Virus record (IMG/VR): IMGVR_UViG_3300043773_002340
Coordinates: 7,913-71,912 of that record
Length of the DNA: 64,000 nt
Strand: one strand, 5' to 3'
DNA from: a virus
The position numbers and the translations under genes are program-made. Below, one piece after another: positions 8,652 through 34,661 of the stretch; position 1 is the stretch's first letter, and every line of letters starts with the position of its first letter. The notes beneath the pieces were generated by a model. It had not been told where the DNA came from. It searched no databases and saw only the letters and a program-made list of their open reading frames with translations.

Positions 8652-8816
8652 TCAGAATGTACCGCAGTTGATAATGCCGGGGATGTTGGCGGCATTCACT
8701 TCGATTTTTCCGTTTTCGGTGATGTAGAGGCCGTCGCCCATCTGCATCGGGCCGTTCTGAGTGTAAATCTCGTATTGAGCGAGAGATGGAGCTGGGGGAA
8801 CTGTAGGAACTGCCAT
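8652..8816 (-). CDS. 54-aa fibre-associated adaptor-like protein (paralog of 26734..26958)
   Basis: Below ORF-track cutoff. MAVPTVPPAPSLAQYEIYTQNGPMQMGDGLYITENGKIEVNAANIPGIINCGTF aligns with DIYTTTGPLPLENGLVVT...FDCGVF. Confidence 0.8.
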   Translation of the reverse strand: MAVPTVPPAPSLAQYEIYTQNGPMQMGDGLYITENGKIEVNAANIPGIINCGTF

Positions 8817-8821
8817 GATAA

Positions 8822-10474
8822 TTACTTGATGCGCATGATGAACTGAACGGCCATGTTGACGGGGACCGTCTCATCGGAACCGCCTTCGGTGGAGGTGTAG
8901 GGAAGGCTCGCCCAAACGTTTCCGCTGGAAGTCAGACCGCCGAGGAAGCCGGTTCCGGGGTTACCCGAGCCCAGGGTGTCAAACGAGTTCCTCCACTGCG
9001 ACTGAAGCGGAGTTCCGTTCACGTCCAGAAGTTTGTGATTGTGGCTACGGAACGCATCCACTTGGGTGCTACCGGGAAGACGCCCGGCTGTTCCAGCTTT
9101 GGTGCCATTCGATTCGTTCACAGTCCCGTTCTGGTCGCAACCACGCAGGAACAGACCGCGATAATCGGGGATCTTGAAAGTGGTGCCGCTGCTCGATCCG
9201 TAGGTGGTGCCGATCAGCGCGAAGAGTGTGGCATACGTGGTCCGGTCAAGGGATTGACCTTCGCAACGTGCCCAGTCACCGTAGGTCGGAAGAACACCGG
9301 TAGGCATCGTGAGAATCGCAGCCAGCGGAAGCAGCTGTGAAGCCAAGTTCGCACCATTGACGGTGGCGTCATTGGCGGAGGCCAGCTTGAACTTGCCTTG
9401 GACGTCCAGGGTTGTGCCAGCGGCAAAAGTGGTGGTCTTGAGGCCGGAGAAGCTGTTGTCGTCGGAGAAGTTGGCTGCTGCGGAGAACGTGGCAGGCTGT
9501 GTGAACGACGAGGCGGCTTGAACCACCATGCTGTCGCCACCAGCAGCAGTTCCCACGTTCAGGGACTGAGCGACGCTGAGGATGTTGGATGTGATTGCAC
9601 CAACGAAGCTCGAGGTGCTGGACACAGCCAGAGTGCCGAACGAGCCGGAAGCACCAGTCACAGCAGCAGTCGCTGTCACGGCACCTGTCACGATCACGCT
9701 TCCGTTGGAAGTCACGCCGGAGCAGGAAACAGAACCACCGGAGACGATGGCGCCCGTGGCGGTCAGAGTGTCGCCGAAAGTGACGGCTCCGTCCACATTG
9801 AGCTCGCCCTCAATCTGGGCGCCACCACCACTCAGAATCGACAGGGCATCTGCGTCAGCCAGGCCAGTGTCAATGATGACCTTGCCGCCGATGGGCCCGC
9901 CAGCTTGGTCGTACTTCTGAGTGTCGAGCTCTTGAATAGCCGACTGAACATTCGTGGAGGTGATGTCACCAGTTGGGACCACGGTCACATTCTGTGCCGG
10001 AATGGTCACGCTGCTCTGGTTGATCAGGCTCCAGCCGTTGCCAGTCGAGATGATCCAGTCACCCACTTCGGCATCGCCGGTGGGAGCGGGAGGAGTCATG
10101 GTGCCGCCGACTTGGACGAGCACGTAGACGTCGGTGTTGCCAGCAGCTGATGCAGGCAGGGGGTCGCCCGCTGTGAGACCTGCGGTGATGCCAGCGGCAG
10201 TGGTAGCTGTGACTTCGTTGATGATGGCGTCGTAGAGGCCGCCAAGGATGGCGGAACCGTTAACTGGGGAGGCGTTAAAGATCGCCTGCTGCCAACCTTG
10301 ACCGGTGATGATCGCCGGGCCAATCACATTACCCAGGGTGTCCAGGTAGTTGTTGCCGCCGTTTCCGAGATATACGTATCCATCAGAGAGGTTGTAAGCG
10401 ACCTGGCCGGGAAGAAGATCCCCGGGCAGATTGCCCGCGCTCAGACTGTGGAGGTTTTGAATAGTTGTTGCCAT
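8822..10474 (-). CDS. Tail fibre with Mtd_N-like N-terminus and tail-collar/T4 gp12-like tip
   Basis: LLPGQVAYNLSDGYVYLGNG; collar WARCEGQSLDRTTYATLFALIGTTYG...FKIPDYRGLFLRG; SHNH; ETVPVNMAVQFIMRIK. Confidence 0.9.
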   Translation of the reverse strand: MATTIQNLHSLSAGNLPGDLLPGQVAYNLSDGYVYLGNGGNNYLDTLGNVIGPAIITGQGWQQAIFNASPVNGSAILGGLYDAIINEVTATTAAGITAGLTAGDPLPASAAGNTDVYVLVQVGGTMTPPAPTGDAEVGDWIISTGNGWSLINQSSVTIPAQNVTVVPTGDITSTNVQSAIQELDTQKYDQAGGPIGGKVIIDTGLADADALSILSGGGAQIEGELNVDGAVTFGDTLTATGAIVSGGSVSCSGVTSNGSVIVTGAVTATAAVTGASGSFGTLAVSSTSSFVGAITSNILSVAQSLNVGTAAGGDSMVVQAASSFTQPATFSAAANFSDDNSFSGLKTTTFAAGTTLDVQGKFKLASANDATVNGANLASQLLPLAAILTMPTGVLPTYGDWARCEGQSLDRTTYATLFALIGTTYGSSSGTTFKIPDYRGLFLRGCDQNGTVNESNGTKAGTAGRLPGSTQVDAFRSHNHKLLDVNGTPLQSQWRNSFDTLGSGNPGTGFLGGLTSSGNVWASLPYTSTEGGSDETVPVNMAVQFIMRIK

Positions 10475-10532
10475 GCTTTCTAGATAGAAGACTGCTTCAA
10501 TTTGAAGTTTAAGTGGCTTGTTTGTAAAGTGG

Positions 10533-10540
10533 TTTTACCC
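10533..10540 (-). promoter_or_regulatory. GGGTAAAA motif (putative late promoter)
   Basis: Intergenic, 58 nt upstream of ATG 10474. Confidence 0.6.
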
Positions 10541-10548
10541 CGTGGATG

Positions 10549-12408
10549 TCAATACTCCTCAATCAGCATGGAGCAGTAGTTTGCTCTCATAGTCATCGCT
10601 CCGCTGATTTCTCGGAGGTTTAAGCCGAAATACTTGCCCTCCATGGCTGCAGTGACAGTGAAAACTCCGGTGCAGCTGGGGACTTCCGTTTCCCCGGTGT
10701 CTCTGTTGTTCGAGAACACGAGGTTTTGCAGAATTGGAAGGGGTGAAACCCAGTCATTACCACCCTGACCAGTGCTGTAAACTAACCCCCAGACTACGTA
10801 AGTAGAGCCGGAAGTAAAGTTATAACCTGCAAGATCTATCGTTGCCTTGTAGGTTCCTGGGCGAATCGTGAACCATGACTTCCCAAGGTTTTGAACGCCA
10901 AATACGAAAGCATCTCCTCTCTGCTCCACTACACTCCACTTCATGTTAGAGTACAGAGGATACCCGTCTGGGGTAGTGATGATTTGATCTTGCGTCAGAT
11001 AGACTTGCAAATAGCTCTTACTACGCCAAGTTGGGGGCGAGCCCGCCCCATTCGAGGTGAGTGCTTGACCGTAGGTTCCCTTGTTGTAGTTACTGAATGA
11101 CAGACCGCCAGTCAGAGTATCAAGGGACAAAAAGTGACTGTTGGTGCCGAAAATGGCGATGTTGTTTTGATCTTCTTTCCCGTTATGGGTGCCAATGACT
11201 ATCTGGTTATTCTCCACAGTTAACACAGTTCCGGCGCCGTGGCCGACGATCACATTGCCGCTTCCTCCAGTGATGTTTTGCCCAGCGTTACCACCAACGA
11301 TCACGTTGTTTAAGGCGGCTCCATTGAAGTTTCTCCCCGCCTGATTACCCACAACAACGTTGCTTTGCGTGGTGGACCCGCCTCCGCTAAGTTGGCCCCC
11401 AGCCAGGTACCCAATGAATACTCCGTTCCCGTTACTTGCGTTGGAGAGGCCCACCGCAGTGGTTTTCACGTTTGTTGTAGTTGAGTTGGATGTCCAGGCA
11501 GTATCAAAGTTAGACGAGCTCGTCTTTGTCAGAATCTGACCAGCAAGGCCACCCAAAGGAACCCCAACCCCATTGGTGCCATTTATACCGGCGGGAATAG
11601 TGAAGTTCAGGACCGCATTCTGAACCGTCCCCGCATTTACAACTGAAGCCGATGTCCCAGGAAACCCTGTAGTTGTGGTACCAACTGATACTGTTGCCGG
11701 ATCACCATCGGCACCGGCGGGACCAGGGTCACCGTCAGAACCTCTCGGTCCTTGAGCGCCGTTGGCACCTGCAGGACCCGTTGCTCCTGTCGCACCTGGG
11801 GCTCCTGCAGCTCCTGTAGGACCCGAAGGACCTTGAGGACCTTGAGGGCCTCTCAGTTGGCCAAAATCCTCCCAGCCAGTTAAAGTGTAAATCCAGAGGT
11901 CTCCCGTGTCAAGAGTCTGGTAAGCGTACCCTATGGTGCTGGGAGTGGGCAGATTGGCAGCAGTGGGGACAGTTCCTTGAATGTAAATCCCAGTTCCTGG
12001 TGGGCCCTCTGGCCCTATGGGCCCCTCAGGCCCTCTAGATCCAGCTGCGCCGGTATCTCCCTTAGAGCCGGCTGGTCCTTGTGGTCCAGCAGAACCTTGA
12101 ATGCCTGGTGGCCCTTGATCACCGGGAGCACCGTCTTGGCCATCTTGACCCTGTGGGCCGTCCGGTCCTTGAGGCCCAGTCGGGCCCGGGGGCCCAGGAG
12201 TTCCTCCTCCGATACCAAACGTGCCAAACCCCATTCCCGGAGGTGGGTCGGGCAGAATTACATTCCCCTCAGCATCTTTCCTGGTGTTACTCCCATCGCC
12301 AATAAACTGGTAGTTATCAGCCAAGTTGAAAGCAATTTCACCCGGAAGTAAAGAATTAGGAAGCTCAAAGGGGACTTCACTGCGAAAGTTCTGAATGTGA
12401 AGGGTCAT
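10549..12408 (-). CDS. Collagen-like tail fibre (paralog of 19179..21005)
   Basis: Mtd_N-like head, two Gly-X-Y tracts, NVVVG.QAG beta-roll repeats, beta-rich C-terminal tip. Confidence 0.9.
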
Positions 12409-12499
12409 TAGTTAGGCCAGTAAACAGAAACTACCACAATTAAAATTCCTTCCGCGAAATTAAAGCTGGGTTTTTGTAAAGTGGACCCCAATAGGGGGT

Positions 12500-12507
12500 T
12501 TTTACCC
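12500..12507 (-). promoter_or_regulatory. GGGTAAAA motif (putative late promoter)
   Basis: Just after the stop of 12511..13839. Confidence 0.6.
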
Positions 12508-12510
12508 TGG

Positions 12511-13839
12511 TCACAATTGCACAATTTCTGTTACCAGACCGTACTTGATTGTGATGCGTTTGTTGTCAGCGGAGACAAATACGGCCCGAGGGCCGTCATT
12601 GAACCAGCGAGTTGGGCCGTTGCCCCGCCCGCCGCTTGTGGGGTCTTGAATGAGCGGGGCGCCTGGATCACCAAAATTGTTGGGGCCGAAGGACACAGCA
12701 CCCATCTTATTGATGCGCATTATGATATTCGAGGAACCCACAATAAACTCCGAATCGAGATCGCCCAAATTGCGAACATAAAATGGATCTAACGACCCCA
12801 GAAAGACGCAGTTTGAGATTGTCTGGGCCAAAGGGGAGCCAGTGTCAGTGGAGAGACATCCGGGTCCAATCAAAACGTTGTTGATTGATGCATTCAGCGC
12901 TTTGCCAGTGTCTCTGCCAATAAATATGCTATTGGTGATCACTCCTGTGGAGCTGAGATTCGGACGAGCCTCCTTGCCGATCATTATATTTCCGTTGGAC
13001 CCACTTTTTGTGCCTTGCCCCGCGGCCGACCCTATACAAATGTTGTCCGAGCAGCCATTCACGCCAATCATGGCATTGCCGCCTATCGCGATGTTGTTTG
13101 ATCCTGTGGTGTTGTCAAGAAGGGCGCTAAAGCCCATCGCAATGTTGTACTGCCCGGTGGTGTTTGCGGCAAGGGCATTGTAGCCTACGGCTGTGTTGCC
13201 CACTCCCTGGTTTTTCATCAGCGTGTTCGCGCCGACGGCGGTGCAAAGTGAGAGATTGGTGGCCTGAGACATGCTCAGATCGCCGACGGCGACGGCGAAG
13301 TCACCAAGAGTTGGTGAAGCGGTCGCCGAACCGAGAGTCTGATAGCCGATTCCCACACAATTGTTACTCGTCGTGAGAGTGCTCCCCGCATTTGAGCCGA
13401 GAAGGGTGTTGAACCCGCCAGTTGTGAGACTTTTTCCTGAGTCGAAGCCAACAGACGTGTTGTCCGTGCCCGTGGGCAGGGTCGGAATCGTGACGCCGAT
13501 GTAGGATGTGCGAGTGGCAAAATTTGTCAGACCCTCGATGGGATTGCCCCAAGAGAGCGACCAACCCGAACCGGTATAAACTTTCAGTTGTGTCTTAAGT
13601 GGGTCGCTTGTGTCTATCCAAAACTCACCCGGACTGTTTCCAGGTGAGCCCGCTGGGTTGGAGTTTGGGGCGGTCACGCCCACATACGGAGGCGCGGCGA
13701 CCACAAGTGAACCATTGGCGTTCTTGAAGAACAGTCCCGGACTTTCCTCTGAGTAATTCATGAGGACCTCACCAGCTACCATCGTTGCGGGGTCCGGGCG
13801 CTTATTCGGGGTGCTTGACCGTTTGAAAAGGTAGTTCAT
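12511..13839 (-). CDS. Tail fibre/adhesin with YadA-like 14-aa beta-roll repeats
   Basis: KRSSTPNKRP...GEVLMNY...LFFKN head; NTAVGYNALAANTTGQYNIAMG repeats. Confidence 0.85.
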   Translation of the reverse strand: MNYLFKRSSTPNKRPDPATMVAGEVLMNYSEESPGLFFKNANGSLVVAAPPYVGVTAPNSNPAGSPGNSPGEFWIDTSDPLKTQLKVYTGSGWSLSWGNPIEGLTNFATRTSYIGVTIPTLPTGTDNTSVGFDSGKSLTTGGFNTLLGSNAGSTLTTSNNCVGIGYQTLGSATASPTLGDFAVAVGDLSMSQATNLSLCTAVGANTLMKNQGVGNTAVGYNALAANTTGQYNIAMGFSALLDNTTGSNNIAIGGNAMIGVNGCSDNICIGSAAGQGTKSGSNGNIMIGKEARPNLSSTGVITNSIFIGRDTGKALNASINNVLIGPGCLSTDTGSPLAQTISNCVFLGSLDPFYVRNLGDLDSEFIVGSSNIIMRINKMGAVSFGPNNFGDPGAPLIQDPTSGGRGNGPTRWFNDGPRAVFVSADNKRITIKYGLVTEIVQL

Positions 13840-15260
13840 GCGATAGATGTGATGAGACCGTTTTTGACTGTGTAAATTTTGCCCGAGTCATCCTTAAATG
13901 AGCCGCTTGCCGCAGTGTAACCAGAGGCGGATACTGCGTCTCCAAACACGAACTGTTTTGAAGTTCCATTTGAGACGTATGGCCCAAAAGAACCCCTTGA
14001 TCCCAATGGAGATTCCCAAGAGGTGCTCCAGCTGTCTGGATTTCCAGCCGAGGTTCGGGCCTGGATCTCGAAAAACTGATATTCTCTATTTCCAGGCCTG
14101 TAGAAAGAGGTGAACTCAGTAGTTCCTGACTTAATCACAGCATAGTTAGCAAGTGCAAAGGCACCACCGGCTGAGTCTAAATATGCCATTTGATTTGGAG
14201 TAGCCGCGATGGATGTGCAATTTATCGTGTTCCACGTCACCCCAACATTATCAATTTTTGTTGGCGCTGGGCCTATGAGGGTGGAGTTGTAAAGGAAATT
14301 TTTGCTGTCTGGGGTAGAATTACCAACATTGTTTCCAATGCACACTGAGTTGCTAATTGAAAAACCCGTAGTCGTACTTGCGAACTCCACTTGATAACTG
14401 CCGCTTCCGAGAAACACTGAGGTCCCCCAAACACCGTTGTCGCTGTTCGGAGGTCCATCAGACGACGCCCAAAAAGATTTCGCCCCAACTACTGTGAATT
14501 GTGCTTTGGCTCCGGAAGCTCCGGACTTAACTTTGCCCAAAAGACCCAATCCACTTTTGTATCCAACCACCGTAGCCTCTGACGCCGCCGATTTGTACTT
14601 CGGAGGAGGTGATGACATTCCCATCGCCTCCGCCCCGAGGGCCACATTCGAGGAGTTTGGATACGAGTATTCACCGGTTTGAGCTTGAGAAAACAAGCCC
14701 GACATCGAATTGTAACCAATGGAAATGTTCATATCGACGGGAAGAGCCCCGGCCACGATCGGATTCGCCTGCGCTGAGGAACCGACTGAGACCGTCCTCT
14801 TTCCAGCGGCTCCACTGTTGGCTCCGAGTGACAAAGTGTCTCCCACCAGTGAAGAGCTTGGCGTGGCGAATGTCTGAGGGTTGGAATCAGGCCCGATCAG
14901 GAGAATCTTGTTTGAGTTCTGTTGAAATGACCCGGCCAAGATGTCCGAACTGGGAGTGGGAGACGTTTTTCCCGGCTCTTGAAAGAAAAGGCCCGGACCG
15001 ATGCTTCGGCTTGTCGAGAACATGAACTCACTCGACTTGATGGATGTGTCCCGAGGGGCGGGGAACACGAGGCCATTCGTGATGAGTGAGGGCCCGAAAA
15101 CTGCCGTGGAAATGGAGGGTGACGGGGCGTCATTGACAGTCTGAAGGGCCATCGCTGGCCTGATCGTGTTCAGGATGAGTTGCCCCAGGCGAGCCGGTGT
15201 TGTGGGTGGGAGAGCGCTGCCTCCTGTCTGGCCCTGTCGAAGAAATTGGATTTTGGTCAT
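13836..15260 (-). CDS. Tail fibre/adhesin with degenerate beta-roll repeats
   Basis: MTKIQFLR...GQLILN head; NISIGYNSM and NVALGAEAM repeats; ends YTVKNGLITSIA. Confidence 0.8.
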   Translation of the reverse strand: MTKIQFLRQGQTGGSALPPTTPARLGQLILNTIRPAMALQTVNDAPSPSISTAVFGPSLITNGLVFPAPRDTSIKSSEFMFSTSRSIGPGLFFQEPGKTSPTPSSDILAGSFQQNSNKILLIGPDSNPQTFATPSSSLVGDTLSLGANSGAAGKRTVSVGSSAQANPIVAGALPVDMNISIGYNSMSGLFSQAQTGEYSYPNSSNVALGAEAMGMSSPPPKYKSAASEATVVGYKSGLGLLGKVKSGASGAKAQFTVVGAKSFWASSDGPPNSDNGVWGTSVFLGSGSYQVEFASTTTGFSISNSVCIGNNVGNSTPDSKNFLYNSTLIGPAPTKIDNVGVTWNTINCTSIAATPNQMAYLDSAGGAFALANYAVIKSGTTEFTSFYRPGNREYQFFEIQARTSAGNPDSWSTSWESPLGSRGSFGPYVSNGTSKQFVFGDAVSASGYTAASGSFKDDSGKIYTVKNGLITSIA

Positions 15261-18200
15261 CAGTAGGTTCCGGCGTCGAGATCAGTCACCCATGCGGGCA
15301 CTCCAGTGTTTGACATTTGAAGGACTTGTCCACTTGTCCCGGCCGAGAGACGTGCGGGCACACCGGCAGCGCCTCCATAGATCATATCCCCCTTACTTTG
15401 AATGACGGACGTCTGAACAAACTTGGTCGAGTTCACACCGATGGTCCCTGTTCCCGTGATGGGACTCGGGGTCATCAGGATAGTGTCGTCGGCGGGAGTC
15501 AGACTGATTGGGCTGCCCGGGCTTGATGGGTTGGCCCACACTGGAGTTCCACTGGCACTGACTGTCAGAACCTGACCGTTGTTGCCAATGTTCAGGGCCG
15601 AGAAAGTGCCCGCGCCAGTTCCATAGAGCAACTGACCGGTGAGAGCAAACGAGCTCTTGGGGATGTATTGAGTGAGCGCAGTGGTGTTAATGTCGAAGCC
15701 TATCACAGGAGCTCTTGCCGATCCTGAGTTGATGATCGGGGCAGTTACCTGGACACTCGAGACAAAGTGATCCGCAGCATTCTTCCAAGCCGGTTTCCAA
15801 GCCTTGTCAGAAGTGAGAGGGAAACTCTGGAAGTCGCCACTCAAAAAGTAGAGTCTGTCAGTGTTGAGCGGAGGCGGGTTAAGATTGGTTGTGTAGTTGG
15901 TGTCACCTAAGGTTGTTCCAGAGGGATATCCATAGGCAATTTGGCCTGCCGAGATAGTTGCGGCATTATTATTCCAATTTAGTAACCGCTGTTCTTGGTA
16001 CGGAGTCGAAATCTCAAAGACGAATTCATTTGCGTATTGTGTCGGGGCGAGAGACTTACGGAACGTGATGCTGGGACTATTTTGAAATCCGCCAACGTTC
16101 GGGTCTCCCCAACTAACAAATGTCGCGGCAGCAGTAGTCCACCCTTGGAGAACCGCTTTATTGCCCGATGTGTTGTTTACTGGAATTCTTCCAGTCCAGT
16201 CGTGGCCGGTGGTGTCAGTGTAGAGCATGCTGCCGGGAGGCCGCCCGTCGTAATCCGGATAGCGAACAACAATGTTGTTGTCAATGGCGAGGGTGCCAGA
16301 GGTCGTGATTGTGCCGCCGATCAGACCGGAGCCGGCTGTGACGCTGGTCACGGTACCAGATCCACCGCCACCACCACCAGTCGAGGCGATGGTGAAGTTT
16401 CCACTTCCGGGAGTCGTCTCAGTGATCGTGACGTTGGCACCGGCCGTGAGACCCAGAACGCCGGTGTTCTTGATGGTGAAGTTGCCGGAGTTGTTCGTCA
16501 GATCGATGCCCGCACCGGCCGTCAGACCAGCAACGGTCGCGGAGATGCTGCGAGTGTTGCCAGTTCCTGCGACCGCGATGCCGCTGTTTCCAGCGGTCAC
16601 GTTGGTCAACACATTCGTGCCAATGTCAAGCGTGACGGCTCCCGCCGCCGAACTCGCCGTGATGTTTCCAGTTGTTCCGGTGATTGAAGTGACACCCGTG
16701 TTTTGAACGACGACCGCGCCAGACGTAGGGGACACACTGATTCCAGCTCCCTGACCAGAGACGGAGAGGACCGAGCTCGCGGCTTGAGTGTTGACGATCG
16801 TGAACTTGCCAGGGCCATTGGGATCCACACGGATGCCAGTTCCGCCTGCGACCTCTAGAACACCGGTGTTTGCCAAAGTGACGACGGGACCGGTGCCGGA
16901 TGTCACAGAGATGCCGGAGCCAGCGGCAGAAGTGATCTGAGTGATTGAGCCACCACCACCACCTCCAGCCGCGGAGATTGTCACCTCGCCCACGCCAGAA
17001 GTTGGGGAGAGGGAGATGTTCGAACCGGCGACCAGCTTCGTGACGCCAGTGCCACCATTCACCGAGAGACTCGCGACACCATTGGTCACGGTGACGTCAA
17101 GAGTTCCCGGGGTCGCGGAAACGACATTCAGAATGCCGGAGTTGGCGATCGTGGGAGACGGACCGCTCGGGTTTGTGATCGTGATGCCTGTTCCCTGGGT
17201 GAGTGACGTGATTCCGCCACCGCCACCGCCAGTCGCATTCACTTTCCATACGCCACCACCGACATTCTCCACAGTGGTGTTGGTGCCGTTCTGAAGTTGG
17301 ACGACTCCGGTGTTGGTCACCGTGCGAGAGTTGCCCGTGCCAGAGACGGTGATGCCGGTCCCCTGTTGTAGGTCGCTCAAAACATTGGGAGCGGACAATG
17401 TGATATTTCCGCCCGCGTTTGCGGCAACGATTGGAGAATTTGCCGCCACGCTCAGCACACCCTCATTGCTGATGGTGAGAGTCGTTCCAGCGATGTCAGT
17501 CGAAATGCCGGGACCGTCGTTGACGTCAGTGATTGGAGCGTTGATAGGAGCGATCCATCGCGGCGCCGCTCCCGAACCCTGCGATGTCAGGACTTGACCG
17601 GCCTGACCGAATTGAGTGTCACCAGAGATGCTCCACGCACCAGCAGAGTTTGAGAAGAAGCGAACTGAGCCGGCGCCAGTCGACAGCGCGACTGAGTTCG
17701 ACATTCCTGACGTGCCCTGGTAGGCTCCCACCACCGTGTTGTTCGCACCTGCTCCAATGTTTGTGCCGGCATTCAAGCCAAGAAGCACGTTGTTGGTGCC
17801 GGTGATGCCAGTCCCACTGCCATATCCGTAGAATGCACCGGTGTTGCCGGTCGCACCATAGACCAGTCCAAAGGTGGTCGGAGTGGCTGGAGACGCGGAC
17901 GGGATAGAAGCCCAATTGACGGCGCCGGCCTGAGACACTTGGAGAACCTGGCCGGCTGTCCCCACTGGGAGTTGAGCAGGTCCGCTGGACGAACCAATGA
18001 GGAGTGTGCCATTGGTGTTATAGAGAGAGGTCGCAACCACCTTGGTGAAGTCAACCTCGAGACCACCAGAAGTGATGATGGGGTTGGTGCCGCCACCAGA
18101 AACGAGCAGACCGTTGTTCGCCTGAATGGCTGTCACTCCACCGCCACCGCCACCACCGCCAGAAGCGCTGATGGTCACCACGCCGGTTCCACCAGAAGGG

Positions 18201-26733: not shown

Positions 26734-26958
26734 TCAGCCCTGCGAACCAAAGACGCCACAATCAAATGTTCCTTCGGTGACGTAGTTTGGATCCAGAGCA
26801 ATAGAGTCTGTTGTTACAACAAGCCCATTCTCCAGGGGCAGGGGGCCCGTAGTTGTGTAAATATCCGGGGCATCCTCAGAATTCAGGATGCGGTCGGGGA
26901 GCGGTGTGCTGCCAGGATATTGAGGAGAGGGCGGTACGATGAAAGTGAAGTTGGGCAT
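26734..26958 (-). CDS. Small fibre-associated adaptor-like protein
   Basis: 74 aa from ATG 26958; ends TFDCGVFGSQG; paralog of 8652..8816. Confidence 0.75.
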   Translation of the reverse strand: MPNFTFIVPPSPQYPGSTPLPDRILNSEDAPDIYTTTGPLPLENGLVVTTDSIALDPNYVTEGTFDCGVFGSQG

Positions 26959-26983: not shown

Positions 26984-26991
26984 TTTTACCC
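26984..26991 (-). promoter_or_regulatory. GGGTAAAA motif (putative late promoter)
   Basis: Overlaps the glycosyltransferase stop; 25 nt upstream of ATG 26958. Confidence 0.65.
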
Positions 26992-27885
26992 TCCCAGGGA
27001 TTCGACAATTTCGTCGACGTTGAAGAGATCTCCCAGATCCTCCTCTTCGTACGGAAACTCGTTCTCGTTCCCGTCGAATTGATAGTCGAAGAGGTACGAA
27101 CCCGGCAGCGAACGCTTCGGCTTCTGTTTGGCTTGGATGTTCGTGTGGAGACCGTGACCGAAAATCACCGAAGATGTCGCATTCCACAGAACAGTGCTAG
27201 GCAGCTCAAATGCGGCAGCGGCGTGTTGGAGTGAGGAGTCGATCAGGAGGCGTTTGTCGGTCAGTTCCAGAAGACCAACGAGTTCCGTGTTGCTCAGAGG
27301 CTCACTGCGCACGAAAACATCGGGGATCTTCTCAGAATTCTGCCGAGTGATCTGCATGATGAAGTGTGTGTCACGGAAGTGATCCGCCACTTTGCAGGCC
27401 ACATCGAAAGGCATGTCGCGAGCCCAGCTGTAGGGACGCTCGTTACTGTAGAGTCCACCATTGGTGTGGATCAGCAGGAATGGCTTACCTTCGAACTTCG
27501 GCTCGTAGAAATTCTTGATCGCCTTGCGCTGCTCTGGGTTGATTTTCAGAGAGGGCTTCTCCCCGTTGTACTCGAGACCGAGAGTCTTGCACCAGGACTC
27601 GACGAGGGAGTGAGTCTTGTTGACGTGGGTAGTGGTGAAATATGGCTCTTGGGCGAAAATCAGCGAGTCTTTATCTTCGACAAACTCTTCGTAGAAATAC
27701 TGTGTCTGGCCAAGCGGATACACTCGGTAGACGAAAGGCAGGTTTGCCCAGAGCTCCGGCCACGCACAGACGACCACGAGCTCCCGGTCAGGGTGGTTGT
27801 TTTTGATGGCCTTGGCTACCGCTGTCGCAGCGATGTGCTTGCCGAGGCCACCGTTGATCTGGAAGATGCTGTATTTTTTAGACAT
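26986..27885 (-). CDS. GT-B fold glycosyltransferase, GT9/heptosyltransferase-like
   Basis: GGLGKHIAATAVAKAIKNNHPDRELVVV...ELWANLPFV and LIDSSLQHAAAAFELPSTVLW match the GT9 N- and C-terminal signatures. Confidence 0.85.
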   Translation of the reverse strand: MSKKYSIFQINGGLGKHIAATAVAKAIKNNHPDRELVVVCAWPELWANLPFVYRVYPLGQTQYFYEEFVEDKDSLIFAQEPYFTTTHVNKTHSLVESWCKTLGLEYNGEKPSLKINPEQRKAIKNFYEPKFEGKPFLLIHTNGGLYSNERPYSWARDMPFDVACKVADHFRDTHFIMQITRQNSEKIPDVFVRSEPLSNTELVGLLELTDKRLLIDSSLQHAAAAFELPSTVLWNATSSVIFGHGLHTNIQAKQKPKRSLPGSYLFDYQFDGNENEFPYEEEDLGDLFNVDEIVESLGG

Positions 27886-27940: not shown

Positions 27941-27947
27941 TTGGTCA

Positions 27948-29363
27948 TCAGGCGCCGACGGGGACGACGGTCGTGATGATGGACGGGATGGCGGGGTACG
28001 GAGCGACAGCGTTCTCTGCGAGCAGTTGGACGTCGGTGTCAAGCGACCACCACCAGATCTCGATGAAATCACCAGCGGCCAGGGTCATGATGAAGTTGAC
28101 AGTGGCGAGCTGGGGAGTGTTGTTACCGACCAGGGTGATGTTCGATGCCGAGTTGTCGACGTTGACACCGTTCTTCTTGAACCAGATGTTGATGTCGTCG
28201 CTACCTGCGTCCGTCTTCGTCACCTGCATCGAGAACTGGATGTTGTAGGTTCCAGCGGAGGCCACTGTGAGCTTGGTTCCGTCAACGATGCTGACGTTGC
28301 GGCTCTCAGTCGTGGTGTTGTAGGTGACTGCGTTTCCGTTGGTGGTGTCTAGGTTGTTCTGAGGAACTGTGCTGAGGAAGGAACCGTAGTTCGGCAGCAG
28401 GGCGGCGGAGCCTGTCCAAGCAGGAGCGGATCCAGTGCCTGTCGACATCAGGATCTGACCGTTGGTTCCGTAGGACGGGGTCGTACCGACACCCACGGCA
28501 CCGTTCTCGTTGACCTGCAGTTTGATGGTTGTACCGGCGGCCAGGATAAGGTTGTCGGCAAGGGCCGCTGTACCGGAAATGTCACCGATGATGGTGTTGT
28601 TGCTTCCAGTTGTAACAGCGTCGCCAGTGGTGTAACCGAGGAAGGTGTTGCCACCACCAGTAGTTACGGAGTCGCCCGCCTGGAAGCCCAAGGCCACGTT
28701 GCCCAGACCCGTGGTCACAGCGAGCAGGGCACAAGCGCCGACGGCAGTCGTTCCGCTTTGGTTATGAGCCGCACCGAGAGCATTCCATCCAATAGCCACG
28801 CCGCAGGAAGTCGCCACGGTCGTATCACCAGCGCCGCTTCCGATAAACGTGTTGCATCCGCCAGTGTTAGCGAAACCGGCTGTGGCTCCGACGAACGTGT
28901 TGTCACAGGATGTGACTAAAGCTCCTCCAACGAAAGCTCCCACCAAGGTGTTGCGAGCGCCGGTTTGAATAGCCTTGCCCGTGTTGGCCCCATAGGCTGT
29001 GTTACGTTGGCCCGATGTCACGGCGCAAAGGGTGCAAGAACCAAATGCGCTATTCAGGGAGGATCCAGTAGTTGCAGATCTCAGTGCGCATAAGCCATAA
29101 CTTAGATTGTCTTTGGGCGCATCCCAAAGGCCATATACGGTGCCAAGCGCTGTGGGCGTGGCCGCGGCTCCGGCACTTGCCGCTAAGTCGTAGGCGGCTT
29201 TTACTGCGTTGGCCGTGGCGGCTTCGGATGTGGAAGTGCTACTAGTAGTGTCGTTGAGTTGTACGATACCAGCCCCCGAAGTCGAGGAGGCCGGCAGGTT
29301 GGCGATGGCGATGGTGGAGCCGTTCTGAATAAAAACGTCACCAATGTAGAAAGATTCGGACAT
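27948..29363 (-). CDS. Tail fibre/adhesin with Cys-containing beta-roll and C1q/BclA-like tip
   Basis: ASSTSGAGIVQL repeat; NTFIGSGAG repeats with 7 Cys; AGTYNIQFSMQ...IWFKKNG...LAAGDFIEIWW tip. Confidence 0.85.
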   Translation of the reverse strand: MSESFYIGDVFIQNGSTIAIANLPASSTSGAGIVQLNDTTSSTSTSEAATANAVKAAYDLAASAGAAATPTALGTVYGLWDAPKDNLSYGLCALRSATTGSSLNSAFGSCTLCAVTSGQRNTAYGANTGKAIQTGARNTLVGAFVGGALVTSCDNTFVGATAGFANTGGCNTFIGSGAGDTTVATSCGVAIGWNALGAAHNQSGTTAVGACALLAVTTGLGNVALGFQAGDSVTTGGGNTFLGYTTGDAVTTGSNNTIIGDISGTAALADNLILAAGTTIKLQVNENGAVGVGTTPSYGTNGQILMSTGTGSAPAWTGSAALLPNYGSFLSTVPQNNLDTTNGNAVTYNTTTESRNVSIVDGTKLTVASAGTYNIQFSMQVTKTDAGSDDINIWFKKNGVNVDNSASNITLVGNNTPQLATVNFIMTLAAGDFIEIWWWSLDTDVQLLAENAVAPYPAIPSIITTVVPVGA

Positions 29364-29381
29364 GATTAGCGAGGGTCAGAT

Positions 29382-32300
29382 TCAGAGAACGGTGGGCTGG
29401 GAGCCGAAGGAGGCGGTGTACTTGTAAACAGCGTTTACAGTGGCCAGTGACACGGACGGGGTGAAGGTCACAAGGGTGTCGTTGCCTGCGTTGGTCTCAA
29501 GTGTGAAGAAACCGAATGTTCCAGTCGAAGAAGTGATGATGCTGGATCCGACTCCGCTGTCAGAGGCGATGGTGATGTTCGCCCATGCGACGTTCGTGGA
29601 GTTGTCTGTCAGCATCACGGTCAGCGTGCCCATGCGAATCGCGCCGGAGAAGCTGAGGAGGTCGAGTGGCGTGGCGGCGACTGTGGCCTTTGTGGTGGCA
29701 GTTGAAAGTGTCTGAGGTGTGGACCAAGTGGGAGCGCCACCAGTTCCAGCAGATGTGAGGACCTGACCAGAAGTACCGTAGCTCGGGGTGGAGCCAACAC
29801 CCACGGCACCGTTCTCGTTCACCTGCAGCTTGATGGTCGAACCAGCGGCAAGAACGAGGTTGTTGCTCAGGGTTGTGGTTCCGGCGTAGGAGCCAACGAT
29901 GGTGTTGGTGGTTCCAGTCGTGATGTTATTACCGGCGTTGTAGCCGATGAGCGTGTTAGCGTTTCCAGACACGTTCTGTCCAGCACCGAAACCAACTGCT
30001 GTGCTCTGCGAACCGGTGATGTTGAGGCTGAGAGCGGTGTAGCCGAGGGCGGTGTTGGCGGTTCCAGTGGTGTTGGCTTGGAGTGCGTTGTGGCCGACAG
30101 CCACGAGGTTGGCGGCAGTGGAGGCAGTGAGGGCGTTGTTACCAACGGCGACGTTGTTACCACTGGTGGTAGCTGTGGTCAGGGCATTGAAGCCGATGGC
30201 AACGTTGTTGGCGCCCGAGGTTACAGAGTCACCAGCAAGACCGCCAACGAAGGTGTTGACCGATCCATTAGTAACTGCGGTACCAGCGTTGAAACCAACA
30301 GCGACGTTGCACCCACCACTTGTCGCAACAGCGAGTGTGTTTGCACCGATGGCCACGGATCCCGGAGCAGTGGCGACACCACCGAGGGCATTCAAACCGA
30401 CGGCGACCGTGTTGTCAGCTGTAGTAGCAGCGTCACCAGCATTCGCCCCGACGAAGGTGTTTCCTCCGCCCGTGGTCAGTGCGGCACCCGTATTGGCTCC
30501 CAAACCAGTGTTATTGTTAGTTCCACCAGCACCAAGGGCGTTGGAGCCCAATCCAGTGTTATTGTCGCCGGATGTGGCGGCGTCACCTGAGCCGAAGCCA
30601 ACATAAGTGTTGTTATTGCCAGCGGTGATTGCCGTTCCAGCGTTGTATCCCAGAGCGGTATTGTTAACGCCACTCGTGATACTGTTACCAGCATTTCCAC
30701 CAAGGGCCGTGTTGAACGGAGTGGCTGTGCAGGTGTAGCCAGACAGAGGAGCTGCGGGAGCGGCCCAAGTCGGGACGCCAGCGGCGACTGTCAGAACTTG
30801 ACCGGCGGAGCCGATAGGCAGAGCGGCAGCAGTGCTCGCAGCGGAGGCGTAGATGATGTCACCGGTCGCGGTCAGCAGGGAAGGAGCGATGACGGCAGAA
30901 CTGTCGAGTGACAGGGTCACATCACCGGAAGTGCCACCACCGGTGAGGCCAGTGCCGGCGGTCACGGCAGTGATGTCACCGATCTGAGGAGTCGTCCAAG
31001 TTGGAACGGCTCCACTTCCTCCTGAGGTCAGGACTTGACCGGCAGTACCGAAGTTGGTACCATCGGGGGACCAAGCACCAGAGGTATTTGCCTGGAACTT
31101 GACAGTGCTTCCGGCGGCGAGGATGACGGTGTCGGTGAGGGCGGCGGAGCCGTTCACATCGCCGATGATGGTGTTATTGAAGCCAGTTGTGATGACGTCA
31201 CCAGCGTTGGCACCGATGAGGATGTTAGTGCCACCCAGTGTTAGAGCTGAGCCAGCATTTGAACCGACGAGAGTGTTGTTGCTGCCTGTGGCAGTGTCGC
31301 CAGCGGCGAAGCCGATGTAAGTGTTGTCGGAACTAGTGGTAACAGCTTGACCCGCACTGGTCCCCACTGCGGTGTTACGAAGACCCGATGAGTTAGCAGC
31401 AAGAGCTTGGAAACCAACCGCAACAAGGTTCGAGCCTGATGTGGTAGATTGTAGCGACCCAGCACCGACGGCTACGTTGGTACCACCGCTTGTGACGCCG
31501 GCAAGGGCGTTGAAGCCAAGAGCTGTGTTGGCTCCACCGTTGGTGATAGAGTCACCGGCGTTTGCACCAACAAGAGTATTGCTTACACCGGTTGTAACAG
31601 CTGTTCCAGCATTGTAACCGATTGAAGTATTGCCTGTTCCACTGGTGATTGAGTCACCAGCGTTGCCACCCAGAGCGGTGTTGAATGGTGTGGCGGTGTT
31701 GGTGTAGCCAGACAGAGAAGCGCCCCATGCGATCTCCCCGGCGGAGACGATCAGCGACTGACCGTTTGTGCCGATCGGCAGAACATCATAGGTGCCAGCG
31801 CCAGTTCCGTAGAGCAGTTCACCAGCAGTCGTGAAGGTCGCGTCGGGAATGGCAGCATCTGCTGTGGACTGGGCAGCAGCAGCGTCGATAATCGCCTGAT
31901 CGGCGGTCGACTGAGCGGCGGCAGCGTCGATCAGAGCTTGATCTGCATCAGTCTGGGCAGCAGCAGCATCCGTCTGACCTTGAATACCGGCGTCGTAGGC
32001 GGCCTTGACCGCAGTCGCAGAAGCGGCAGTGGTGCTGGAGGTGACGTTCGTCGCGTCGGTGACAGCGTTAAGGGAGCCGTTGACACCACCTGCGAACTGC
32101 AGCGAGTAGGTGCCTTGAACGTTGACGTTTTGGGCGGTGATCGTGCCCGTCATCGTGCCGCCAGCTTTCGGCAGAGAGGCATTTGCCACGGCCAAAGCAG
32201 CGGCGGCGTCGGTCTGACCCTGAACGCCGGCGTCGTAGGCGGTCTTGACAGCAGTGGCGGAAGCGATTTGGCTGCTGTTGGTCACGTTGACCGCATCGAT

Positions 32301-34100
32301 CACGTTGTCCTGCAGAGCCTGAGGAGTGATCGCTGTGGTGTCGGATGTGCCAGCAAGGACCGCGGCAGCGTCAGCCAGTTGGACGATGCCTTGTTGGTCG
32401 TAGGTCGCCTGTGGAGGACGGGCTCCAACTCCGAGGACCAACCAGTTGGTGCCGTCGGAAAGCAGCCAGTCGCCATTCTCCATGGCGCTCGGGTTTGGAC
32501 CGGAGACCACGCAGACGAGGTAGTAGTCTTCGTTTGAGGGATCAGCTGGAGGCAGTGGGTCACCATTGACAAAACCGGCGGCGAGACCGGCGGCGGTCAC
32601 ACCGTCGACCACACCGTTGAGAGCGTCCCAACCACCGGCCAGTGTCGTGTTGGCGGCGATCGTCAGCGCGTCGATCTGTCCCTGAAGCACCGCACCTTGG
32701 GCAGCAGTCAGGGCTTGAGTGGTGGAGCTGGAGCTGAGAGTATTGTTGAGGGAGACCGCACCCTTGACCGTTGTCGAAGCGTCGGGGACGTTGATGACAC
32801 CGGCGACGAGAGTCAGGTTGCCGGTCAGCTCGACCTGGACCACACCGGGAGCGGCTGTGGTTGCGAGGTTGACACCGACGATCGGGGTCTGGGGATCGGT
32901 GTTGTCGACTGTGATTGGAGCGGTTCCTGTGACAGATGTCACGTCGCCAGGGGCGTCATCGGTCCAGGCGGGTGTGCCTGAGACCACCGTTAGAACTTGG
33001 CCGTCAGAGCCAACACCGAGAGGGCCGAATGTGCCGGCGCCAGTGCCGACGAGGATGTCACCCTCAGCCGTGTAGGAAGCACGGGGGATGGCTGCCACAG
33101 CCACGTCGTTGACCGCCTTGATGGCGAACGGAGTGGTGGCTTGAGTGATTGAAGTGCTGTCCAGGGCTGTGCTCAGTTGAACAGCGCCAGGAGCGGAAGT
33201 CGAGGCGGCGTTGATGCCGACGACTGGAGTCTGGGGATCAGTGTTGTCGACGGTGATGGGGGACGTTCCGGTCACTCCGGTCACGTCACCCTGGGCGTCA
33301 TCCACCCACAGTTGGCCAGTGCCGTCAAAACTGAGGATCTGGCCCGCGATTGGTGTGTTGGAAGCTTTGTTCAGCTTGTTGATTTCGAGATCGTTGATGT
33401 CAGTCTGGGCCTGCGCCATCTCGCCTTGGAGAGTGGCGATGTCGCCATCATTCGAAGTGATCTGGGACTGCAGACCGTCATCGACGAGCTTGAGGGCACT
33501 GAGCACAGCCTGTGTGGAGGCTGCGGTCAAAGTCATCGGGTTGGTGGCAGGCACCTGGTCCGAAGTGTTGAAGGCGAAGTGAGCGCCGAACAGCCACTCG
33601 GTTCCGCTGTAGATGTAGAGGCCTTCGTAGGTGGTGCCTGGAGCACCTTGAACGATGCAGGTGGCGTTGCGCCCGATGTAGGAAGGGCTGCCGATAGCGG
33701 AAGAAATCTTCTGGCTCGTTGTGGCACCCGGAGCTGCGGAAACAGCGGCGTTGTCTGTCTGATAGGAGAAACCGGTGCCGGCGTCCTGCCACTCGGCCAC
33801 TCCAAGAGCGGCGTTGTAGGTCAACACTTGCTCATTGGTCGGAGCGGGACGACCCTCAGCCTCGGGATTAGCGACAAAGAAGTCGTTCAGAGCAGTGCGC
33901 TCAAGCAGCACCTGAACCCAGCCCTTACCAGCGGGGGGATTCGGGGTGACGACTGTGCCGGAGAAATCAATACGGGTGTCCGAGCCCGTACCAAGATACA
34001 TGGTACCGTCAGAGACGTTAAACGCAACCTGACCTGGATCGAGTTGGGAAGGCTGGGCTCCGGGGATAGCGGAGCGGAGTTGTTGGAACGAGATAGTCAT
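29382..34100 (-). CDS. Giant tail fibre (1572 aa)
   Basis: Mtd_N-like head LDPGQVAFNVSDGTMYLG; fibre repeats; two long NTALG.NAG beta-roll tracts; only 4 Cys. Confidence 0.9.
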   Translation of the reverse strand: MTISFQQLRSAIPGAQPSQLDPGQVAFNVSDGTMYLGTGSDTRIDFSGTVVTPNPPAGKGWVQVLLERTALNDFFVANPEAEGRPAPTNEQVLTYNAALGVAEWQDAGTGFSYQTDNAAVSAAPGATTSQKISSAIGSPSYIGRNATCIVQGAPGTTYEGLYIYSGTEWLFGAHFAFNTSDQVPATNPMTLTAASTQAVLSALKLVDDGLQSQITSNDGDIATLQGEMAQAQTDINDLEINKLNKASNTPIAGQILSFDGTGQLWVDDAQGDVTGVTGTSPITVDNTDPQTPVVGINAASTSAPGAVQLSTALDSTSITQATTPFAIKAVNDVAVAAIPRASYTAEGDILVGTGAGTFGPLGVGSDGQVLTVVSGTPAWTDDAPGDVTSVTGTAPITVDNTDPQTPIVGVNLATTAAPGVVQVELTGNLTLVAGVINVPDASTTVKGAVSLNNTLSSSSTTQALTAAQGAVLQGQIDALTIAANTTLAGGWDALNGVVDGVTAAGLAAGFVNGDPLPPADPSNEDYYLVCVVSGPNPSAMENGDWLLSDGTNWLVLGVGARPPQATYDQQGIVQLADAAAVLAGTSDTTAITPQALQDNVIDAVNVTNSSQIASATAVKTAYDAGVQGQTDAAAALAVANASLPKAGGTMTGTITAQNVNVQGTYSLQFAGGVNGSLNAVTDATNVTSSTTAASATAVKAAYDAGIQGQTDAAAAQTDADQALIDAAAAQSTADQAIIDAAAAQSTADAAIPDATFTTAGELLYGTGAGTYDVLPIGTNGQSLIVSAGEIAWGASLSGYTNTATPFNTALGGNAGDSITSGTGNTSIGYNAGTAVTTGVSNTLVGANAGDSITNGGANTALGFNALAGVTSGGTNVAVGAGSLQSTTSGSNLVAVGFQALAANSSGLRNTAVGTSAGQAVTTSSDNTYIGFAAGDTATGSNNTLVGSNAGSALTLGGTNILIGANAGDVITTGFNNTIIGDVNGSAALTDTVILAAGSTVKFQANTSGAWSPDGTNFGTAGQVLTSGGSGAVPTWTTPQIGDITAVTAGTGLTGGGTSGDVTLSLDSSAVIAPSLLTATGDIIYASAASTAAALPIGSAGQVLTVAAGVPTWAAPAAPLSGYTCTATPFNTALGGNAGNSITSGVNNTALGYNAGTAITAGNNNTYVGFGSGDAATSGDNNTGLGSNALGAGGTNNNTGLGANTGAALTTGGGNTFVGANAGDAATTADNTVAVGLNALGGVATAPGSVAIGANTLAVATSGGCNVAVGFNAGTAVTNGSVNTFVGGLAGDSVTSGANNVAIGFNALTTATTSGNNVAVGNNALTASTAANLVAVGHNALQANTTGTANTALGYTALSLNITGSQSTAVGFGAGQNVSGNANTLIGYNAGNNITTGTTNTIVGSYAGTTTLSNNLVLAAGSTIKLQVNENGAVGVGSTPSYGTSGQVLTSAGTGGAPTWSTPQTLSTATTKATVAATPLDLLSFSGAIRMGTLTVMLTDNSTNVAWANITIASDSGVGSSIITSSTGTFGFFTLETNAGNDTLVTFTPSVSLATVNAVYKYTASFGSQPTVL

Positions 34101-34103
34101 GGA

Positions 34104-34661
34104 TTAGGCAGGAACAAAGGAGCCGCAATCGACATTTGTAACAAACTGTGTGGCCGGATCAATCTCTACGCCATTGCCGGCGCGAACCATGTTCTTAACG
34201 AAGCCGACGTTGATCGCTTGTTGAAGAGCGTTGGGATTGATTGGGGCAGTCAGGAAGAGTGGACCGTTGACGGTTCCGCCAAGGTCGCTGATGGTGTGGT
34301 CGAGGAAAAAGCCCAAAGTCACAGGCTGATTGTTCTCGAGAATCGGGGCGGAGAAATAAGCCGGACCAACGACGGTCCATCCTCCAGCCTCAGTCAGAAC
34401 ACCATTCGGGAGTGGCATCGTGGTGACCCACTGGCCGCCTCCGGTGTCCACATAATAAAGCCATAAGGTTCCAGTGCTGGCTTGGTACCAGAGGTCACCC
34501 TGTTTGGGGCGGTTAGGCGGACAGTCAGACACGTACACCGGAGCGTCGTCCGGAGTTGGAAGTGCTTGTGGTGCCCACCCGTAACCGTTGAAGATGTAGG
34601 ATACGCCTTTGTAGAGGTAAGTATCCCCAATCTGCGGATTTGCGGGGAAATTCAATGCCAT
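34104..34661 (-). CDS. Fibre-associated structural protein
   Basis: MALNFPANPQIGDTY..W; P..P..GDLWY....GTLWLYY.D..GGQWV module; ends VDCGSFVPA. Confidence 0.75.
   Translation of the reverse strand: MALNFPANPQIGDTYLYKGVSYIFNGYGWAPQALPTPDDAPVYVSDCPPNRPKQGDLWYQASTGTLWLYYVDTGGGQWVTTMPLPNGVLTEAGGWTVVGPAYFSAPILENNQPVTLGFFLDHTISDLGGTVNGPLFLTAPINPNALQQAINVGFVKNMVRAGNGVEIDPATQFVTNVDCGSFVPA

Follow-up and report, generated by a model that had tools for sequence, protein, structure and literature searches.

The window analysed here, a stretch of 64,000 nucleotides from a 71,912-bp viral genome, contains between positions 8,652 and 34,661 the fibre array of a cyanophage-like virus, probably a myovirus, with genes for many different tail fibres. 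An ORF check of the window placed every ORF of the array on the minus strand, at the coordinates of the initial annotation. Read along that strand, the array opens with a 185-aa protein (34104..34661), a putative anchor or adaptor which has a beta-rich N-terminal half and the C-terminal tag VDCGSFVPA, followed by fibre 1 (29382..34100; 1572 aa), in which an N-terminal module precedes Phage_fiber_2 repeats. The next gene (27948..29363) encodes a fibre-like protein of 471 aa without the module. A reading of the 1572-aa and 471-aa genes as a simple split of one fibre was rejected, since the 471-aa protein resembles the first fibre of a related locus, L001, by its tip only (residues 90-471 are 62% identical to the tip of that 1952-aa fibre), and the 1572-aa protein has an end of its own. 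A 299-aa protein (26986..27885) inside the array has a weak match to glycosyltransferase family 9 (Pfam PF01075, E 0.0065, under the cut-off); in S-CBWM1, a glycosyltransferase likewise lies beside fibre genes. These are followed by a tag-only protein of 74 aa (26734..26958), composed of a proline-rich start, one fibre-like repeat and the end FDCGVFGSQG, and by fibre 2 (21037..26730), which is 1897 aa long and carries the N-terminal module. The 74-aa gene more probably starts at the ATG at 26958, since its ortholog in another locus, L003, begins at that position.

The remainder of the array consists of a collagen-repeat fibre of 608 aa with the module (19179..21005; Pfam Collagen, E 7e-20), a 1292-aa fibre (15260..19138) that opens with the module and has the tag LDAGTY as its last residues, a 474-aa protein (13836..15260) with a possible divergent module, a 442-aa fibre (12511..13839) with the gp37-type form of the module (KRS..KRPDP..GE), a second collagen-repeat fibre with the module (10549..12408; 619 aa), and a 550-aa fibre (8822..10474) that combines the module with a tail collar domain near its tip. 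The last gene (8652..8816) encodes a tag-only protein of 54 aa ending INCGTF; a G+C-rich hairpin follows it, which was not flagged by a terminator scan. Of the tips named in the initial annotation, the collar was confirmed (Pfam Collar PF07484, 62.7 bits against a cut-off of 24, E 3e-17) and the C1q-like assignment was not: the sole match to C1q PF00386 is at the tip of the 1897-aa fibre and below the cut-off (12.5 bits against 23.7, E 0.17), with none on the collagen fibres. At the DNA level the array matched nothing in 50,697 phage records.

Eight related N-terminal modules had been proposed for the array. In an alignment of the eight N-termini, one clear module of about 65 residues opens six fibre genes (starts 34100, 26730, 21005, 19138, 12408 and 10474), with a mean column identity of 65% and 16 invariant columns. 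The N-terminus at 13839 is a divergent version, detected with a broader HMM (E 4.5e-6) and by tblastn matches to gp37 N-termini, S-CBWM1 and S-CBS4. The 474-aa protein starting at 15260 is a weaker candidate, which neither module HMM reaches at 1e-3 and which aligns with gp37 N-termini in hhalign at E 4.7e-4 and a probability of 32%. The canonical module found no tblastn match in the 50,697 phage records at E up to 0.1, and only the divergent form led to gp37 there. Comparison of 12 window-family sequences with nine gp37-type N-termini by hhalign gave a probability of 97.7% and an E-value of 1.6e-12 over 47 columns, and at the level of sequence profiles the module and the N-terminal part of T4-type gp37 are homologous. 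It is also a terminal element: among the best 150 representatives it starts within the first 19 residues in 144, and the remaining 6 are repeat proteins or a two-copy oddity. One protein with two copies, P0078, looks like a faulty gene call. Proteins in which anchor and fibre are fused were absent among the longer proteins, which is weak evidence, and the best 150 representatives included no clear case; this absence counts against docking.

The module had originally been likened to the attachment domain of Mtd, and that comparison did not hold up. Mtd_N (PF18454) gave matches in two of the eight module proteins, both under the cut-off (E 0.062 and 0.084; 13.7 and 13.3 bits against 26.3), and nothing in the other six; profile alignment with Mtd of Bordetella phage BPP-1 by hhalign was not significant (probabilities of 0.25% and 1.1%). 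In both systems a trimeric receptor-binding protein carries a short attachment module at its N-terminus (Pfam PF18454 in Mtd), and the putative fibre gene bbp9 of BPP-1 ends ..DLGGIA-stop, 15 nt before mtd, which fits a relaxed form of the tag. However, sequence tests do not unite the families, and the likeness is one of resemblance only.

The four C-terminal tags, VDCGSFVPA, FDCGVFGSQG, LDAGTY and INCGTF, are present exactly as first described and share the pattern (D/N)xGx(F/Y). Of the 945 stop-to-stop frames of at least 40 aa in the whole genome, 5 have [DN].G.[FY] among their last 12 residues. These are the four tag genes and one 50-aa frame of the non-coding strand; the tag is short, and chance matches therefore occur (1 of 5 genome-wide). 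No protein carries more than one tag. In an alignment of 14 members of the anchor family, G162, N163, G164, D178 and G180 are invariant. The small tag genes are real, as judged by pN/pS ratios of 0.10-0.15 for the anchor (against L001 and L002), 0.27 for the 74-aa protein and 0.18-0.31 for the 54-aa protein, with synonymous sites heavily diverged (pS 0.46-0.74). The anchor was also considered as a gp36 homolog and rejected (hhalign of the anchor family against gp36, probability 0.07%), and no tag protein of the four had a match to PF03903 (Phage_T4_gp36) with an E-value of 1 or less; both results tell against the T4 parallel.

For three of the four tag genes, the stop codon lies 3 nt ahead of a module gene or overlaps it by 1 nt, in agreement with the adjacency first noted. 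The stop codon of the 185-aa gene and the start of fibre 1 are joined as TAA-TCC-ATG, those of the 74-aa and 1897-aa genes as TGA-TAG-ATG, with the ATG again 3 nt after the stop, and the 1292-aa and 474-aa genes overlap by 1 nt in TGATG. The fourth, the 54-aa gene, is followed by a 412-aa protein without a module. For five of the window's eight module genes there is no neighbouring tag gene; these five are set off by spacers of 31-102 nt or a 4-nt overlap, among them the collagen fibres of 608 aa (31-nt spacer) and 619 aa (102-nt spacer); two further module genes of the contig, outside the window, also lack an upstream tag gene. The five unpaired genes of the window favour an alternative in which each fibre attaches independently to the baseplate through its module and the DxGx(F/Y) tail, instead of docking, caps trimeric fibre segments in a generic way. 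Against it, the tag is found on proteins of 54-185 aa that have no fibre shaft to cap, and the comparative data below show that tag and module occur together. We regard independent attachment as unlikely.

Related loci gave a consistent picture of the first junction. In all 16 IMG/VR loci holding an anchor gene, the anchor is 156-185 aa long and ends D(C/S/P)G(S/L)(F/Y/L/I), and its gene ends 3-8 nt before the ATG of the first fibre. Adjacency statistics supported the pairing more generally: among 247 de-duplicated neighbouring gene pairs, a tag gene followed by a module gene is strongly enriched whether the tag is relaxed (17 pairs with tag and module, 8 with tag only, 13 with module only, 209 with neither; Fisher p 1e-12) or strict (8, 6, 22 and 211, respectively; p 3e-5), p-values which overstate independence since the loci are from related phages. 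In a second sample, picked by the gp37-type module only, the upstream ORF ends DxGx(F/Y)-stop in 13 of 19 loci; the upstream tag is missing in 5 of 18 assessable uncultured loci. The ortholog of the 1292-aa fibre in L017 has the same two ends, module and tag. L016 holds a three-step chain, which runs from an anchor to a 344-aa protein ending ..DAGTY, on to an 859-aa protein ending ..DAGEF, and then to a protein of at least 485 aa.

The pairing extends to cultured phages. At loci chosen by the module alone, DxGx(F/Y)-stop is the exact end of the protein encoded upstream in 6 of 9 cases, namely gp36 of T4, RB49, AB-Navy71, KP15 and CC31, and gp047 of S-CBS4; the remaining three, which have no upstream tag, are compatible with independent attachment. 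By sequence, then, the tag/module pair is not private to the window phage. The order in which T4 fibre segments assemble onto one another is known from genetics. In the T4 long tail fibre (gp34-gp35-gp36-gp37), a tag gene is likewise followed by a module gene: gp36 ends DFGYY-stop, 8 nt before gene 37, and gp37 starts with the same module. T4 has one such joint, whereas the window phage has at least 8 sockets (ten in the contig) and four tags, which are carried by unrelated bodies: the 185-aa anchor, the 54- and 74-aa mini-proteins and the 1292-aa fibre. Counterparts of gp34 or gp35 were not named by general, untargeted family searches. Trimeric gp36 binds the N-terminal region of gp37 (PMC3004832), so that in T4 a fibre with this module attaches to gp36 and not to the baseplate, contrary to what independent attachment supposes. 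The residues that make the gp36-gp37 joint were not named in the literature searched. S-CBS4, a Synechococcus siphophage and thus also a cyanophage, is similar in that gp047 ends IDCGTY-stop and the module at the start of gp048 has a form that lies between the window's two types; it differs in having a single joint on a non-contractile tail. Both proteins are annotated only as tail fibre proteins, and no study of their joint was found in the literature searched.

Docking of the tag on the module was examined in a model of three copies of fibre 1 residues 1-110 and three copies of anchor residues 96-185. The ipSAE values were 0.79, 0.77 and 0.89, while the best of three controls scored 0.00; contacts agreed completely (100%) between runs, and the pLDDT of the partners was at least 77. 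In calibration, 116 of 157 solved complexes attained this mark, as did 2 of 215 mismatched pairs; the 3+3 job does not resemble that set. The predicted interface comprises residues 1-12, 14-18, 21 and 26 of fibre 1 and residues 163-165 and 174-185 of the anchor, and the invariant C-terminal residues of the anchor lie in or next to it. The model thus places the tag on fibre residues 1-18, which supports docking and speaks against a simple end-cap. It is free of a memory effect by sequence: neither side is similar to any solved chain, and profile searches of solved structures with the module and the anchor returned chance-level matches only. The underlying alignments have little depth (13 and 14 rows, with many close sequences), and for the window phage the tag-module contact is a prediction made for this one pair. 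The AlphaFold2 monomer of the anchor was not confidently folded (pLDDT 41) and its role is inferred, points which again lean toward independent attachment.

The small tag proteins could have a different function. Like T4 gp38 or the Tfa proteins of Mu and P2, the 54- to 97-aa proteins might be chaperones that assemble the upstream fibre and are absent from the virion. They are small, and in several loci directly follow a fibre gene: the 54-aa gene begins 5 nt after the collar fibre gene, and it also follows a collar fibre in L003, L018 and L019. However, the upstream neighbour of the 74-aa family varies, from the glycosyltransferase-like gene here to differently tipped fibres in L001 and L003, while the gene downstream always opens with the module. 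In L003 the ortholog precedes a different, collagen-type fibre, and in L001 a 97-aa form precedes a 1026-aa fibre; the 74-aa protein is tied to the module rather than to a particular tip. Furthermore, the tails match gp36, which is a structural virion protein, and Pfam and PHROGs gave no chaperone-family match for the small tag proteins. A chaperone function is therefore very improbable.

These same rearrangements raise the question of whether the boundary between tag and module is mainly a recombination joint for swapping fibre cassettes, conserved for reasons other than protein binding. The array is mosaic, with the 74-aa protein and its relatives placed before fibres as different as those of 1897 aa, the collagen type (L003) and 1026 aa (L001, 97-aa form), and the tip of the 471-aa protein is shared with another phage's first fibre. 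Conservation is nevertheless at the level of protein, as the pS and pN/pS values above indicate, and the motifs are kept among T4-like phages, a siphophage and the window lineage, which have no DNA match. We consider recombination as the main explanation quite unlikely. Docking and recombination are not mutually exclusive, and a docking joint is also a natural point for swaps.

Taken together, the data make it likely that the array is built with the same head-to-tail joint as T4 gp36-gp37. With the start module corresponding to one side of that joint and the end tag to the other, the fibres probably clip both to small adaptors and to one another. In this model the socket would be the first 50-65 or so residues of a fibre, the homologue of the gp37 N-terminus, and the plug would be the terminal (D/N)xGx(F/Y) tail, no more than 4 residues from the C-terminus and preceded by one short fibre repeat, the putative counterpart of the gp36 C-terminus. 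Three plug tails are predicted to pair as strands with the first 18 or so residues of a trimeric socket. The N-terminal half of the 185-aa anchor probably sits on the baseplate while its tail holds fibre 1; the 74-aa protein would likewise hold fibre 2 and, by orthology with L003, may also serve collagen fibres. Since the 1292-aa fibre carries both ends, it would continue into the 474-aa protein, and perhaps into other gp37-type fibres. That the anchor attaches to the baseplate, and which partners the five unpaired fibres have, are matters that we infer. Docking and chaining as initially proposed are thus supported by gp36-gp37 homology, adjacency and the model; branching is not supported, no protein carrying more than one tag.

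Head-to-tail geometry separates the proposed joint from known branched complexes. In those of the CBA120, G7C and Klebsiella types, one virion carries several receptor-binding proteins that commonly share a conserved N-terminal anchoring part, as here, and these N-terminal domains dock onto internal branching domains of another spike; the partner in the window phage would be a C-terminal tail.

If tail and module are the two sides of a joint, the fibre architecture of uncultured phages becomes predictable from the ends of genes, even adaptors of 54 aa become recognisable, and a splice point is defined for swapping modular receptor-binding fibres between laboratory phages. More tentatively, tail and module may form a portable docking code, readable from sequence across myophages and siphophages, with subtypes that set the fit and with combinatorial use in this phage. 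A double-ended fibre and three adaptors with a plug but no socket (185, 74 and 54 aa) would then mount up to ten different fibres, giving virions with mixed or chained receptor-binding tips whose wiring could be read, and redesigned, from gene ends. With ten sockets and four plugs, the genome is an extreme case and a good test bed for subtype specificity of the joint.

A strict two-class code, with C or S tags pairing with the canonical module and A, F or Y tags with the gp37-type module, was tried and rejected. It fails as a rule because L011 has ..DFKTF ahead of a canonical module and S-CBS4 has ..DCGTY ahead of one of the KRPD type, and is seen as a trend only.

The initial annotation read the minus-strand fibre array (8652..34661) as a set of fibres that share an N-terminal module, into which a C-terminal tag, (D/N)xGx(F/Y), of a neighbouring protein would dock. 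All the open reading frames it placed there were found at their coordinates. Six of the eight genes credited with the module are clear: about 65 residues are common to the N-termini encoded from starts 34100, 26730, 21005, 19138, 12408 and 10474, with a mean column identity of 65% and 16 invariant columns in the six-sequence alignment. The protein starting at 13839 carries a divergent form (broader HMM, E 4.5e-6). For the protein starting at 15260, which neither HMM matched, comparison with gp37 N-termini by hhalign gives weak support (E 4.7e-4, probability 32%). The four tags read exactly as first written; they end the 185-aa anchor (34104..34661), the 74-aa protein (26734..26958), the 1292-aa fibre (15260..19138) and the 54-aa protein (8652..8816). 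Genome-wide, only 5 of 945 frames of at least 40 aa have [DN].G.[FY] in their last 12 residues, namely these four array genes and one short frame on the other strand. Three of the tag genes immediately precede a module gene, as proposed, across junctions that read TAA-TCC-ATG, TGA-TAG-ATG and TGATG. The small tag genes are real genes, since pN/pS against their orthologs is 0.10-0.31 while synonymous sites are strongly diverged.

A module-based scan of IMG/VR recovered 20 loci of relatives. The anchor ends in D(C/S/P)G(S/L)(F/Y/L/I) in 16/16 loci that show its gene, and in all 16 its stop lies 3-8 nt ahead of the first-fibre ATG; the simplest relatives (L005, L007, L012) have one anchor and one fibre each. 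Among 247 de-duplicated neighbouring gene pairs from the genome and the 20 loci, a tag-stop followed by a module start is enriched: the relaxed tag gives 17 pairs with both, 8 with tag only, 13 with module only and 209 with neither (Fisher p 1e-12), and the strict tag 8, 6, 22 and 211 (p 3e-5), values that overstate independence because the loci come from related phages. Two of the eight tag-only pairs are of the LDAGTY-to-474-aa type missed by the HMM, and one involves the 54-aa gene. Orthologs of the 74-aa protein precede different fibres (1897 aa in the window, collagen in L003, 1026 aa in L001) and follow different genes, so this protein goes with the module and not with the tip.

The canonical module had no match in cultured phages. 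Its divergent form matches the N-terminal end of gp37 (distal subunit of the long tail fibre) in RB49-, JSE- and CC31-type phages, as well as gp080 of the Synechococcus myophage S-CBWM1 and gp048 of S-CBS4. When the profile of the window-family module was compared with that of nine gp37-type N-termini, the probability was 97.7% (E 1.6e-12). In T4, gp36 ends in ..QDFGYY-stop and gene 37, with the module, begins 8 nt later. The gp36 proteins of RB49 (IDFGTF), AB-Navy71 (LDYGTF), KP15 (IDFGSY) and CC31 (QDFGTY), and gp047 of S-CBS4 (IDCGTY), are each encoded directly upstream of a module-bearing gene. In cultured loci picked by the module alone, the upstream tag is present in 6/9 and missing in vB_KpnM_17-11, S-CAM9 and ACG-2014f. 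In a second IMG/VR sample, chosen solely by the gp37-type module, the upstream frame ends in DxGx(F/Y)-stop in 13/19 loci and in a ..SGGTY variant in one more, with one locus too short to judge and two on contigs already sampled. In T4, trimeric gp36 is known to bind the N-terminal region of gp37. Tag and module are therefore, by homology, the two halves of an established joint, and the array expands this kind of joint to an unusual degree. The anchor shares its tail alone with gp36, its body being unrelated in sequence and profile tests, and it was rejected as a gp36 homologue; the tag thus behaves as a portable end piece on differing bodies. The full texts searched describe the assembly order of T4 fibres and low-resolution models; in them we found no statement on a DxGx(F/Y) tail at the C-terminus or on its partnership with the beginning of gp37.

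Docking was modelled as a complex of three copies of fibre 1 (29382..34100) residues 1-110 and three of anchor residues 96-185, with separate alignments. An interaction was predicted, with ipSAE values of 0.79, 0.77 and 0.89, whereas the highest-scoring of three controls reached 0.00; contact agreement between runs was 100% and partner pLDDT at least 77. In calibration, this mark is reached by 116/157 solved complexes and 2/215 mismatched pairs, counts that are only a rough guide for a job of 3+3 shape. The predicted interface joins fibre residues 1-12, 14-18, 21 and 26 to anchor residues 163-165 and 174-185; on the anchor side this covers the tag together with the short repeat in front of it. 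Invariant residues on both sides (module M1, Q6, L8, R9, G14 and P17; anchor G162, N163, G164, D178 and G180) lie within or beside it. Recall of solved structures is an unlikely source of this result, because neither partner has a sequence relative among solved chains. We take the model as support for docking rather than proof. Together with adjacency and gp36-gp37 homology, it leaves docking of the anchor tag into the fibre 1 module well supported.

Other parts of the initial annotation fared less well. Branching was not borne out: no protein carries two tags. A search for a fused anchor-fibre protein found none. A chain is seen in L016, where after the anchor come a 344-aa fibre (..VDAGTY), an 859-aa fibre with a gp37-type module (..FDAGEF) and a third module-bearing fibre. 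The proposed resemblance to the Mtd N-terminal domain was rejected as Mtd_N membership; two of the eight proteins scored 13.7 and 13.3 bits, below the 26.3-bit cut-off, and hhalign against BPP-1 Mtd was not significant. One point for the likeness comes from Bordetella phage BPP-1, in which bbp9 (L032:4599-6125), a putative tail fibre gene, ends in ..ADLGGIA-stop 15 nt upstream of mtd, placing a relaxed tag ahead of the founding Mtd_N member. A C1q-like tip was not supported by the domain test.

Five module genes in the window have no upstream tag gene: those for the 608-aa (19179..21005), 1292-aa, 442-aa (12511..13839), 619-aa (10549..12408) and 550-aa collar (8822..10474) fibres. Four follow spacers of 31-102 nt, and the 442-aa gene shares 4 nt with that of the 474-aa protein (13836..15260); no module gene follows that of the 54-aa tag protein. 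The 74-aa protein may also serve the collagen fibres, because their first residues are shared with the L003 fibre that follows its ortholog. The 54-aa protein, a constant companion of the collar fibre across loci, may act for the two fibres that have ..LHSL.. in their module. In the 1292-aa fibre, the ..DAGTY tail is similar to tails preceding gp37-type modules elsewhere and may accept any of the four gp37-type fibres. The 608-aa and 619-aa collagen-repeat fibres are nearly identical over their first 65 residues and similar at their ends, and look like products of recent duplication or gene conversion inside the array.

The window is most of one 71,912-bp contig whose long frames lie nearly all on the minus strand. 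PHROG matches identify the portal, maturation protease, major head protein, large terminase and PhoH, together with a tube-like protein, a baseplate wedge subunit of gp6-like type and a giant protein whose end is sheath-like. The terminase is nearest to that of S-CBWM1 (54% identity over 91% of its length) and the fibre array, searched at the DNA level, matched none of 50,697 phage records; this is thus an uncultured relative of a cyanophage lineage. A second minus-strand fibre cluster outside the window (whole-contig positions G000:C1:1-7163) encodes 1501-aa and 520-aa proteins, both opening with a gp37-type module, and a collagen-like frame left open at the end of the contig, so the genome is incomplete. 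The contig as a whole encodes at least ten fibres with the module. In a 1739-aa protein (56047-61266, minus), the C-terminal part is sheath-like (phrog_17610, E 7e-42) and long regions match virion structural and fibre families, which is unusual for a tail sheath.

Several smaller features were also seen. In L004-L020, the gene immediately upstream of the anchor gene (e.g. L007:8413-9492) encodes a protein of 359-360 aa with D(S/A)GG(Y/L/I) about 10 residues before its C-terminus, and the anchor after it opens with FPxxPxxGxxY..W, a motif with which S-CBWM1 gp076 and gp079 also begin; a second type of joint is possible, as is chance. The end of fibre 1 (1572 aa), ..ASFGSQPTVL, bears a loose likeness to ..GVFGSQG, the end of the 74-aa protein. 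A 471-aa fibre-like protein (27948-29363, minus) is without the start module, and its tip is 62% identical to that of the first fibre (1952 aa) in L001. Directly after the 54-aa gene, at the array end, lies a G+C-rich hairpin, GGGGGAGC-TTCG-GTTCCCCC (8610-8650, minus), which the terminator scan did not flag. Within the array, a 299-aa gene (26986-27885, minus) has a weak glycosyltransferase family 9 match, and in S-CBWM1 a glycosyltransferase likewise adjoins the fibre genes (L022:15189-16163); the fibres may be glycosylated.
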